Assembly (NCBI GenBank): GCA_027294455.1
Contig: JAPULZ010000109.1
Coordinates: 13,259-77,258, forward strand
Direction of reading: 5' to 3'
DNA: 64,000 bases
From: Gemmatimonadota bacterium
Lineage (GTDB): Bacteria > Gemmatimonadota > Gemmatimonadetes > Gemmatimonadales > GWC2-71-9
The notes beneath the pieces were generated by a model that was not told where the DNA came from, did not search any database, and worked only from the letters and a program-made list of their open reading frames with translations. A program made the position numbers and the translations under genes. Below, in pieces: positions 11,974 to 48,693 of this stretch. Each line of letters starts with the position of its first letter. Position 1 is the stretch's first letter.

Positions 11974-12519
11974 TTGCCCTGGATCGAATGGATTGACGAA
12001 GCCGACGCCACCGGCCCCCTGAAAAAGAGCTTCGATCGATTCGCCACCGAACACGGCGTCGATCATATCCTGAAAATTCATTCACTCAATCCGCGATCTC
12101 TGGAGGATCACTACCGGCTGTACGCCCACCTGATGCGCGGCCCCTCGGGACTCTCTCGCGCCGAACGGGAAATGATCGCGGTCGTGGTTTCGAAAACCAA
12201 CGATTGCTTCTATTGACTGAAGCATCACGGGGCGGGACTCCGTGCGCTGCTGCAAGACGACGCCCGCGTCGCCGCCATCGAAGACGACTACACGACGGCC
12301 GACCTCTCCGCCCGCGAGCACGCCATCCTCGACTACGCTGTCAAGCTGACCCAAACGCCCTCGAAGATGCGGGAAGCCGACATCCAGCGGCTCCGGGATG
12401 CCGGTCTCGAAGACCGCGCGATCCTAGACCTATGCCAGGTGACGGGCTATTTCGCCTATGTGAATCGGATGGCGGACGGGCTTGGTGTCGAGCTGGAGAC
12501 CTACTGGAAAGAACCTTGA
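11974..12519 (+). CDS. AhpD/carboxymuconolactone-decarboxylase (CMD) family peroxidase-related protein with in-frame TGA (12214-12216), a candidate selenocysteine codon
   Basis: The ORF-track ORF 11974..12216 ends ...VVSKTNDCFY-TGA. The same frame continues LKHHGAGLRALLQDD...LSAREHAILDYAVKLTQ...DLCQVTGYFAYVNRMADGLGVE to TGA at 12517-12519, with the same G/C-rich third positions. TGA sits at the second Cys of the family C-x-x-C-x-x-x-H motif. Confidence 0.65.
12218..12254 (+). promoter_or_regulatory. SECIS-like stem-loop immediately 3' of the in-frame UGA
   Basis: Upper stem C12226-G12244, A-U, C-G, G-C, G-C, G.U, G12232-C12238 with apical loop CGGGA (12233-12237). Lower stem A12224-U12248, C-G, G-C, A-U, (A x G), G-C, U12218-A12254, with an internal loop U / CGC between the stems. 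Confidence 0.5.
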
Positions 12520-22865: not shown

Positions 22866-22871
22866 CAGACC

Positions 22872-24149
22872 GTGATCGATCTCAAACAGCTTCGTGACGC
22901 GCCCGAGGAGTTCAAGGCGGCGGCGGCACGGCGCGACGCCGGCCTCGTGCCGGCCCTCGACGCGATCCTCGAATTGGACGAGCGGCGCCGCCAAGCCCTC
23001 AAACGCGTCGAAAGTCTGAAGGCGGAGCAGAACAAGGCGTCCACCGAAGTCGCCCAGCTGAAGCAGAGCGGCGCCGATGTATCCGAGTTCATCGGCCGGC
23101 TCAAGGTACTGAGCGACACGATCAGGAAATTGGATCAGGAGCTGCGGGACGTGGAAAGGCAGTTGCGGGATCGCCTGCTGAAGATCCCCAACGTCCCGCT
23201 CGCCGGCGTCCCTGAGGGAGATGCCTCCGCCAACCTGGAGCTTCGCACCTGGGGCACACCGCCGGTGTTCGCTTTCGCGCCCAAGCCGCACTGGGAGTTG
23301 GGCGAGACGTTGGGCGTGCTGGATCTGGCGCGGGGCGCGAAGGTCGCCGGCAGCGGCTTTCCGGTCTACACCGGCATGGGCGCCCGCCTGGTGCGGGGCT
23401 TGATCAACTTCATGATGGACCTCCACGCCGAGCAACACGGCTATCACGAGATCTGGCCGCCGGCACTCGTGAACGAGGCCAGCGCGTTGGGGACGGGACA
23501 GCTGCCGGACTTGGAAAACAACATGTACGTCACGGAGGATGGGCTCTATCTGGTTCCCACCGCCGAGGTGCCGGTGACGAACCTCCACCGCGACGAGATT
23601 CTCTCGGCCGACCAGATGCCGCTGGCGTATGTAGCGTATTCTCCTTGCTTTCGCCGCGAGGCCGGTGCCCACGGCAAGGACACGAGGGGCATCATCCGGA
23701 TCCACCAGTTCGACAAGGTGGAACTCGTGCGTTGTTGCACACCGGAGACGTCGGACGACGAGCTGGAGTTGCTGCTCGGGCACGCCGAGACGGTGTTGCA
23801 GTTGCTCGATCTGCCCTATCGGGTGGTGGCGCTGGCCACCGGAGACCTGGGATTCGCGAGCGCCCGCACCTACGACCTCGAGGTCTTTGCCCCGGGCGTG
23901 GACGCGTGGCTCGAGGTGTCGAGCGCGAGCGTGTTCACCGATTTTCAGGCACGCCGTGCAAACATTCGGTACCGTCCGGCGTCCGGCGGGAAGCTGAGGT
24001 TCGTGCACACGCTGAATGCCTCCGGCCTCGCCTTGCCGCGCACGATCATCGCGCTGCTGGAGAACCACCAGCAGGACGACGGCACTGTGCGCCTGCCCGA
24101 CGTGTTGATGCCGTATTTGGGAGTGGATCGCCTCACGCCACATGCTTAG
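22872..24149 (+). CDS. serS: seryl-tRNA synthetase
   Basis: 425 aa. N-terminal coiled-coil (IDLKQLRD.PE......RR) and class-II core (FRREAGAHGKDTRGIIRIHQFDKVE, TLNASGLALPRTIIALLENHQ). Confidence 0.97.
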   Translation: MIDLKQLRDAPEEFKAAAARRDAGLVPALDAILELDERRRQALKRVESLKAEQNKASTEVAQLKQSGADVSEFIGRLKVLSDTIRKLDQELRDVERQLRDRLLKIPNVPLAGVPEGDASANLELRTWGTPPVFAFAPKPHWELGETLGVLDLARGAKVAGSGFPVYTGMGARLVRGLINFMMDLHAEQHGYHEIWPPALVNEASALGTGQLPDLENNMYVTEDGLYLVPTAEVPVTNLHRDEILSADQMPLAYVAYSPCFRREAGAHGKDTRGIIRIHQFDKVELVRCCTPETSDDELELLLGHAETVLQLLDLPYRVVALATGDLGFASARTYDLEVFAPGVDAWLEVSSASVFTDFQARRANIRYRPASGGKLRFVHTLNASGLALPRTIIALLENHQQDDGTVRLPDVLMPYLGVDRLTPHA

Positions 24150-47481: not shown

Positions 47482-47859
47482 GTGAAGCCCGTCTCGACAA
47501 AATCCGCACCCGACGCCATCGGCCCCTACAGCCAGGCAATCATTCACGAGAGCCTGGTGTATTGTTCTGGCCAGGTGGCACTCGATCCAGCCACGATGGA
47601 GGTCGTCGACGGCGGCGTGGTGGCACAGACGGCGCGTGTGTTCCAGAACCTGGCGGCGGTGTTGGAGGCCGCCGGAAGCAGTCTGCAGAACGTGGTCAAG
47701 ACCACCGTATACCTCGCCGACATGGGGGAGTTTCCGCAGATGAATGAGGAATACGCGAAACATTTCGGAGCCCACCGGCCGGCACGGGCCACGGTCGAGG
47801 TGTCGCGTTTACCGAAGGACGTGCGGGTGGAGATTGACGCCATCGCCGTCGTCGGCTAG
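47482..47859 (+). CDS. ridA: RidA/YjgF-family reactive-intermediate deaminase
   Basis: 125 aa. AP.AIGPYSQA.......Y.SGQ...DP..........QT..V..NL.AVLEAAGSSL..VVKTTVYL.DM..F..MN..Y...F....PAR..VEV..LP....VEI. Confidence 0.9.
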   Translation: MKPVSTKSAPDAIGPYSQAIIHESLVYCSGQVALDPATMEVVDGGVVAQTARVFQNLAAVLEAAGSSLQNVVKTTVYLADMGEFPQMNEEYAKHFGAHRPARATVEVSRLPKDVRVEIDAIAVVG

Positions 47860-47889: not shown

Positions 47890-47986
47890 GGGGGCGGATT
47901 TGGCCTGGTGGCTTGCACGGTCTTCAAAACCGCTGGGAGGTGCCTTAGGCGGCTCCGGTGGGTTCGATTCCCACACGTCCCCGCCA
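47890..47986 (+). tRNA. selC: candidate tRNA-Sec (anticodon UCA), 97 nt, CCA encoded
   Basis: Acceptor GGGGGCG(G) 47890-47897 pairs with (A)CGUCCCC 47975-47982, then discriminator G and CCA (47984-47986). T-arm is GUGGG-UUCGAUU-CCCAC (47958-47974). Anticodon loop is C-U-UCA-A-A (47922-47928). Long variable arm at 47936-47956 (9 pairs, one G x G mismatch). D-arm has a 4-nt loop UGGU. Weak point: the anticodon stem has only 4 clean pairs plus an A x C. Confidence 0.7.
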
Positions 47987-48051: not shown

Positions 48052-48693
48052 GTGAATCGCCGGTGCCCATCACCGAGCAAGTGGGGCGTCCCGCGCTGGT
48101 GCGGTGGTCGCCGTGAGCGTTCCCGTCATCGCCGTTCTCGCAAAAGGGATTCCCGGACACAGGGGGGACGCGACCTGATCCGGCCGGTCCCTCTCCTCAC
48201 ACTCGGGCTCTTGGCGCTGGGCCCGGGGCTCGTCAGCGCCCAGATTCCCATCCCGCAGCGAACCGGCGAACAGGACACGGTTCAGGTCGATCCCTTCCGG
48301 GAAGCGCCTCCCGTCTCACCCATGGGGGCCTTGTGGAGATCGATGTTGGTGCCGGGATGGGGCCAGGCCCGCCTCAACCGACGAGTCACCGGTGCTTTCT
48401 TCGTCGTCTGGGAGGGCGTCACCCTCACCATGACCATCAAATCCATCCACCAGCTGGACTATCTCCAGACCGTCGAGTCGGAGGACGACATCGAGTCCCA
48501 GGACCGCGTCAGATCCAAGCGAAACGAGATCCAGGACTGGGCCGTCCTCCTCGCCTTCAACCACCTCCTGGCCGGCGTCGAAGCCTTCGTGTCGGCGCAA
48601 CTGTGGGATTTTCCGGAGGAACTCGCCGTCCGGGTATTGCCCCGCGGCGGCGTAGGGCTGAGGGTGGGGCTTCCTATCCCGGCGATACGGTAG
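48052..48693 (+). CDS. hypothetical membrane/envelope protein; start uncertain (GTG 48052 to CTG 48175)
   Basis: Hydrophobic segment LLTLGLLALGPGLVSAQ followed by ...SMLVPGWGQARLN... and a second hydrophobic stretch. G/C-rich third positions. No family assigned with confidence. Confidence 0.5.
   Translation: MNRRCPSPSKWGVPRWCGGRRERSRHRRSRKRDSRTQGGRDLIRPVPLLTLGLLALGPGLVSAQIPIPQRTGEQDTVQVDPFREAPPVSPMGALWRSMLVPGWGQARLNRRVTGAFFVVWEGVTLTMTIKSIHQLDYLQTVESEDDIESQDRVRSKRNEIQDWAVLLAFNHLLAGVEAFVSAQLWDFPEELAVRVLPRGGVGLRVGLPIPAIR

Follow-up and report, generated by a model that had tools for sequence, protein, structure and literature searches.

The region analyzed in this work, hereafter the window, is a stretch of 64,000 nucleotides from a Gemmatimonadota contig, in which a tRNA gene is flanked by the following protein-coding genes:

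47482..47859, + strand: ridA, the upstream neighbour (Pfam Ribonuc_L-PSP, E 3e-43)
47890..47986, + strand: tRNA-Sec gene (selC), 97 nt including the discriminator and the encoded CCA
48052..48693, + strand: membrane-protein ORF downstream of selC (borderline DUF5683, 26.8 bits against a cut-off of 26.7)

The initial annotation had placed the tRNA between ridA and a membrane-protein gene; the first of these assignments holds, and the second has only the borderline DUF5683 match, yet the gene is conserved beside selC in relatives. Residues 61-191 of its product are found next to selC in 11 Gemmatimonadota loci, and the true start of this gene is probably later than 48052. The first ~60 codons of ORF 48052-48693 look non-coding. 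The gene order secF-tatD-fhs-ridA-selC-membrane gene is kept in several Gemmatimonadota assemblies, with 50-73% amino-acid identity as determined by tblastn, and the fhs product of the window is 100% identical to an NCBI protein labelled 'MAG: Gemmatimonadetes bacterium'. The window also carries housekeeping genes, among them pgk, tpiA, carA, sdhAB, groES/EL, serS, uvrD, gatAB, nusA-infB-truB-ribF, secDF, kdsB, pyrG, kdsA, the lpt genes and rpoN.

A scan around selC found neither a sigma-70-like promoter nor an intrinsic terminator, and the stop codon of ridA is separated from the tRNA by 30 nt. Because the gene follows ridA so closely, the simplest inference is that selC would be co-transcribed with fhs-ridA and then processed.

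Related genes were collected with a pattern scan that used one genome per species and returned at least 120 tRNA-Sec loci (L001-L120); among the matches listed, the tRNA-Sec sequences nearest to that of the window all come from Gemmatimonadota assemblies. In two of these loci, L105 (2362-3348) and L054 (5072-7800), selC is separated from the conserved membrane gene by an additional 1-2.7 kb of DNA. Judging from ORF translations alone, this DNA includes a diacylglycerol-kinase-like gene in one case and repeat-rich ORFs in the other, with no obvious sel genes in either, and it may represent insertions at the tRNA gene. A further locus (L041, 638-732), on a contig binned as 'Gemmatimonadota bacterium MAG274', carries an actinobacterial-type tRNA-Sec (GGAGGCGU...), unlike all other Gemmatimonadota copies, and may be a binning error.

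When the window was searched against Rfam, a single RNA family match was obtained, tRNA-Sec (RF01852) at 47890-47982, with 69.8 bits against a gathering score of 47 and an E value of 3.2e-12. The match spans the full length of the model (1-91), and at 47890-47986 RF01852 outscored the general tRNA model of the same clan. The proposal of a 97-nt tRNA with tRNA-Sec architecture was thus borne out, and the score lies well above the threshold below which the initial annotation would have abandoned it. The comparison with selC of related genomes that had been suggested there points in the same direction: the score falls inside the range of 68-79 bits observed in 13 relatives (69.1-69.9 in its own subclade), and the covariation in 17 sequences described below supports a tRNA-Sec.

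The sequence of the gene reads GGGGGCGG-AU-UUGGCC-UGGU-GGCUUG-CACGGU-CUUCAAA-ACCGCUG and continues after ACCGCUG as GGAGGUGCC-UUA-GGCGGCUCC-G-GUGGG-UUCGAUU-CCCAC-ACGUCCCC-G-CCA. Its parts are:

47890..47897, + strand: 5' strand of the acceptor, GGGGGCGG, whose partner is 47975-47982 (ACGUCCCC)
47900..47915, + strand: D arm UUGGCC / UGGU / GGCUUG, 6-position stem and 4-nt loop
47916..47935, + strand: anticodon arm CACGGU CUUCAAA ACCGCUG, 6 pairs and one bulged nucleotide on the 3' strand
47922-47928, + strand: anticodon loop CUUCAAA, 7 nt, read directly from the sequence
47924..47926, + strand: anticodon UCA, decoding UGA, read directly from the sequence
47936..47956, + strand: variable arm GGAGGUGCC UUA GGCGGCUCC, 21 nt, from the fold and covariation
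47958..47974, + strand: T arm GUGGG UUCGAUU CCCAC, 5-pair stem, from the sequence and the relatives
47983..47986, + strand: discriminator G73 (47983) and encoded CCA, read directly from the sequence

Most of the arms had been described correctly from the letters alone: the T arm, the loop CUUCAAA with its UCA anticodon, the discriminator G followed by CCA, the 4-nt D loop, the U x U in the D stem, and an acceptor with seven standard pairs, one of them G.U, plus an eighth G x A position. Two descriptions had to be modified. The variable arm has the proposed length of 21 nt, but its stem is formed by 8 pairs (7 Watson-Crick and 1 G.U) around a central G x G and not by 9 pairs. The anticodon stem, considered weak with 4 clean pairs plus an A x C, has 6 pairs in the minimum-energy fold, in which C27-G46 and A28-U45 are paired and C44 is bulged; the stem is therefore not truly weak, since the bulge shifts to C44 and A28 pairs with U45.

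The acceptor includes 6 G-C or C-G pairs, one G.U, and the G x A at position 8. Eight residues separate the T stem from G73, and the acceptor/T branch has 13 positions (8+5); this geometry is present even though the eighth acceptor position is not Watson-Crick. In the D stem, whose positions are U.G, U x U, G.U, G-C, C-G and C-G, 5 of the 6 are standard pairs. Both the long variable arm and G73, which are identity elements for SerRS, are present. In these respects the sequence at 47890-47986 carries all the testable defining features of a bacterial tRNA-Sec.

A long variable arm and G73 are also found in tRNA-Ser, and a degenerate tRNA-Ser pseudogene had been named as the alternative in the initial annotation. 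This explanation, or a chance match, has a practically negligible probability: an E value of 3.2e-12 over the full length of the tRNA-Sec model, ahead of the general tRNA model, is not what chance would give, the D loop has 4 nt instead of the 8-11 of tRNA-Ser (PMC7609411), and orthologues occupy the same locus in many genomes. The model score, the covariation and the conserved locus together refute the pseudogene of tRNA-Ser. An intact tRNA-Ser, with its 7/5 branch, 4-bp D stem, loop of 8-11 nt and Ser anticodon, was also considered and discarded, given that the window gene has a D loop of 4 nt, an acceptor of 8 positions and a UCA anticodon.

The conservation of the structure was evaluated in two sets of sequences, an alignment of the window gene with 13 relatives (14 sequences) and a larger set of 17 sequences. 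In the first, 89-91% of the cells are occupied by standard pairs, as compared with ~50% after sliding of the partners; two-sided changes are seen at 16-17 pairs, and none of 500 shuffles reached the observed score. In the second, 93% of the cells are paired if the bulged anticodon stem is assumed. The cloverleaf is thus kept, with compensatory changes, across 17 relatives, and the anticodon was reported by ARAGORN as tca at the same position in 17 relatives.

The individual arms contribute to this pattern in different ways. Changes on both sides are observed at acceptor pairs 3, 5 and 6, and at pair 4 the variation is confined to one side (GU/AU/GC). In E. coli tRNA-Sec the eighth acceptor pair is a Watson-Crick C-G; here the G x A occupies this position in all 15 relatives that cover the site, which makes it a conserved feature of the clade and not damage to the window copy. 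The D stem is paired in 97% of the cells; U12 x U25 is common to the window and its closest relative (L128), and the others have G.U or G-C. All nine positions of the variable stem show changes on both sides, and the T stem is paired in 100% of the cells, with one compensatory pair (G-C to A-U).

For the anticodon stem three registers were compared. In the unbulged register, no sequence has a standard pair at 27:45; a bulged C44 gives 87% of paired cells, and a bulged column 45 gives 90%, the best value for the whole family. In this last register columns 27:46 (C-G, A-U or U.G) and columns 28:44 (C-G, G.U, G-C or A-U) are each paired in 12 of the 17 sequences and covary, whereas in the window itself A28 faces C44. 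A single-nucleotide bulge on the 3' strand of the anticodon stem is thus the family-wide pattern, for which the C44 and column-45 forms are indistinguishable here.

The gene escapes ARAGORN, which called 0 tRNAs in the 64 kb window. The same program calls tRNA-SeC in 17/17 relatives tested, and 6 of 7 single substitutions introduced in the window sequence restore the call, U11C being the one that does not; among the mismatches whose repair restores it are U x U, A x C and G x A as well as the G x G of the variable arm. The window gene sits just under the threshold of the program, and the miss is a threshold effect due to a single additional U x U of the D stem, a mismatch also present in a close relative. 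Pipelines that rely on ARAGORN would annotate no tRNA-Sec in this genome.

These results could also be read as the first signs of decay, i.e. a selC inactivated recently, as its lineage loses the Sec trait, with the U x U and the A x C as the first disabling mutations. The program fails on the window copy only and six of the seven single changes rescue it; in addition, SelA activity is reportedly aided by the fifth and sixth pairs of the D stem (PMC7609411), which in the window gene are U x U and U.G. Closer relatives, gathered through fhs homologues (L128, L129 and L130), reveal the origin of the two mismatches. L129 and L130, the two more distant (fhs 85% and 82% identical, respectively), carry G12.U25 and G28-C44; the corresponding positions are U12 x U25 and A28 x C44 in the window, and U12 x U25 and A28-U44 in L128, the relative with an fhs product 91% identical. 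Compared with L130, the window gene has therefore two destabilising substitutions, G12 to U, which creates the U x U, and G28 to A. The series G-C (L129, L130), A x C (window) and A-U (L128) at 28:44 is the usual compensatory path under continued selection, in which L128 carries the compensating change C44 to U, and in the window a shift of the bulge lets A28 pair with U45. Since L128 has the same U x U, this mismatch has persisted through speciation. The compensatory path, the shared U x U and an Rfam score equal to that of the sister sequences make a pseudogene unlikely, and the AhpD-like gene described below, which this tRNA probably serves, has retained an uninterrupted frame, the UGA and the hairpin; for these reasons we consider recent inactivation very unlikely, and we favor a functional gene that is still under selection.

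The client gene lies upstream, and had been noticed in the initial annotation as a CMD-family gene containing a UGA codon, a description that was confirmed here:

11974..12519, + strand: AhpD-like (CMD family) selenoprotein gene, CxxU (Pfam CMD 43.5 bits against a cut-off of 23)
12214..12216, + strand: in-frame UGA, the Sec codon, at the place of the second Cys of CxxC
12226..12244, + strand: SECIS-like hairpin CACGGGG-CGGGA-CUCCGUG, fold of -9.5 kcal/mol

The sequence around the UGA is ...TNDCFY*LKHHG..., which gives the motif C-F-Y-U. For the family and homologue searches a Cys was put at the stop codon. Residues 13-172 of the product align with PDB entries 3c1l, 2pfx and 6k40 (E 3e-31 to 1e-27) across the stop codon, and the UGA falls on the second Cys of the CxxC of these proteins. 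In 7/7 metagenomic orthologues (L121-L127), which are 53-75% identical, the TGA is kept and the frame is read on; five of them are syntenic, with the order nlpC/P60-CMD-groES, and in the two whose contigs reach groEL (L121 and L124) GroEL is 89-91% identical to that of the window. The AhpD-like gene is located directly upstream of groES-groEL, an order kept in L121-L125.

The hairpin begins 12 nt downstream of the first UGA base. All 8 sequences retain the stem ACGGRG/CUCCGU, while at the last base of the loop, which corresponds to a synonymous codon position, A, U, C and G are all seen among them; a kept stem together with a free loop base is the pattern expected of a SECIS. The fold of the 71 nt after the UGA is not more stable than that of shuffled sequence (z -0.69), so the case for a SECIS rests on the short conserved hairpin and the synonymous changes. 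The AhpD-like gene is a likely client of the tRNA-Sec, and we propose that 11974-12519 should be annotated as one read-through selenoprotein and not as a truncated ORF; ordinary gene callers would split or truncate it.

The window thus holds both the tRNA and a gene that needs it, because the AhpD-like gene has a conserved UGA and hairpin. The earlier claim that the organism decodes selenocysteine is therefore supported from inside the window, by the UGA kept in 7/7 orthologues and by the conserved hairpin. Pfam scans of 40 ORFs of the window revealed no selA, selB or selD, in agreement with what had been stated before, and we infer that these three genes are probably present elsewhere in the genome. 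The gene for seryl-tRNA synthetase, serS, is a housekeeping gene that lies 24 kb upstream of selC (22866-24146, + strand), and nothing suggests a functional link between it and the selC locus. In the literature we found no dedicated study of Sec use in Gemmatimonadota.

From these data, and from the established Sec pathway, the following sequence of events can be proposed. The selC transcript would arise by co-transcription with the upstream fhs-ridA, or from a promoter within these genes, and then be processed, with the CCA already encoded. It folds into a 13-position acceptor/T branch (8+5, with the conserved G.A as the eighth), a D stem of 6 positions with a 4-nt loop, a 6-pair anticodon stem with a one-nucleotide bulge, and a long variable arm. 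SerRS would charge this tRNA with serine through the long variable arm and G73; SelA would recognise the D arm, with its 6-position stem and 4-nt loop, and convert Ser to Sec, using selenophosphate that SelD would supply; and SelB, which needs the long acceptor branch, would deliver the Sec-tRNA-Sec to a UGA followed by a SECIS (PMC7609411, PMC9312934). At least one such UGA site is present in the window, at 12214 in the AhpD-like, peroxidase-related gene.

A tRNA with a UCA anticodon and a long variable arm, in a window where no Sec machinery is seen, could instead be a tRNA-Sec-like suppressor of UGA that inserts another amino acid, either an allo-tRNA (8/4 or 9/3) or a Cys-recoding selC-like tRNA. 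We regard this as extremely unlikely. Every relative has a T stem of 5 pairs, in which a compensatory change is seen, and the branch is 8+5, outside the definition of allo-tRNAs (PMC5389517); the discriminator is G, as in Ser and Sec tRNAs; the 6-position stem and 4-nt loop of the D arm are those of tRNA-Sec; and after the UGA comes a conserved SECIS-like hairpin, the signal for SelB. The allo-tRNA class as such, with a 12-bp branch and a T stem of 4 or 3 bp, was rejected for a gene whose 5 T-stem pairs are paired in 100% of the cells among relatives and include a compensatory pair.

Taking all the evidence together, we conclude that 47890-47986 is, with a probability of roughly 93%, the functional selC of a Gemmatimonadota bacterium; a chance match is not a reasonable explanation, because RF01852 is recovered with an E value of 3.2e-12 over the full model length. 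The gene would mark this Gemmatimonadota genome as a selenocysteine user. It is a known kind of gene, an ordinary selC with little that is new, and beyond its correct annotation it adds nothing new on the Sec system.

The eighth acceptor position was also surveyed in 118 tRNA-Sec genes among the matches listed, in a sample biased by the search pattern and parsed with a simple script. Within the matches listed of this pattern-biased sample, a standard eighth pair is present in 23/118; in 69/118 of those listed the 3' nucleotide could instead find its partner in the G immediately preceding the T stem, which would make the branch 7/6-like; and 26/118 of them, including all the Gemmatimonadota sequences, show a purine-purine juxtaposition. 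Among the same matches, the discriminator is G in 103/118 and the CCA is encoded in 63/118. The constant purine-purine G.A at the thirteenth position of the branch in Gemmatimonadota might be a lineage signal for EF-Tu rejection or SelB acceptance, which would define a distinct variant of tRNA-Sec identity; we consider this idea doubtful. It also takes in the bulge of the anticodon stem, which is able to shift position. If it were true, it could extend to other phyla, considering that 23/118 genes have the standard pair among the matches listed in the biased sample.

The window gene can be compared with several known systems. It shares with bacterial tRNA-Sec (RF01852; E. coli, Aquifex aeolicus) the UCA anticodon, G73, the 8+5 branch of 13 positions, the 6-position D stem, the 4-nt D loop and the long variable arm, and its 97 nt fall inside the range of 90-101 nt reported for these molecules (PMC5330540, PMC7609411). 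It differs from them in the G x A at the eighth acceptor position, which is invariant in the clade, in the one-nucleotide bulge on the 3' side of the anticodon stem, in the U x U of the D stem, and in that selC does not adjoin selA or selB. Unusual bacterial tRNA-Sec were described with Secmarker, among them 7/5 forms with a bulged position 43a (PMC5330540); the window gene resembles these in having a bulged nucleotide on the 3' anticodon strand and seven standard acceptor pairs, but its T stem is separated from G73 by 8 residues instead of 7, and the 13-position geometry is therefore kept, with G73 at the expected place. The allo-tRNAs, which have 8/4 or 9/3 branches of 12 bp and in some cases a UCA anticodon, were found in searches for tRNA-Sec (PMC5389517); they have in common with the window gene a long variable arm, whereas this gene has a T stem of 5 pairs, a branch of 13 positions and a putative SECIS-dependent client gene. 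Regarding this client, AhpD-like CxxU proteins (COG2128) are a known family of bacterial selenoproteins (PMC9312934), with which the gene of the window shares the CMD domain, U at the position of the second Cys and a hairpin after the UGA; it shows no notable difference from them and adds a Gemmatimonadota member to the family. The small peculiarities of the tRNA gene, i.e. the G.A at acceptor position eight, a bulge in the anticodon stem, the D-stem U x U and the absence of clustering with other sel genes, are lineage-level variations of kinds that have been reported before for bacterial tRNA-Sec.
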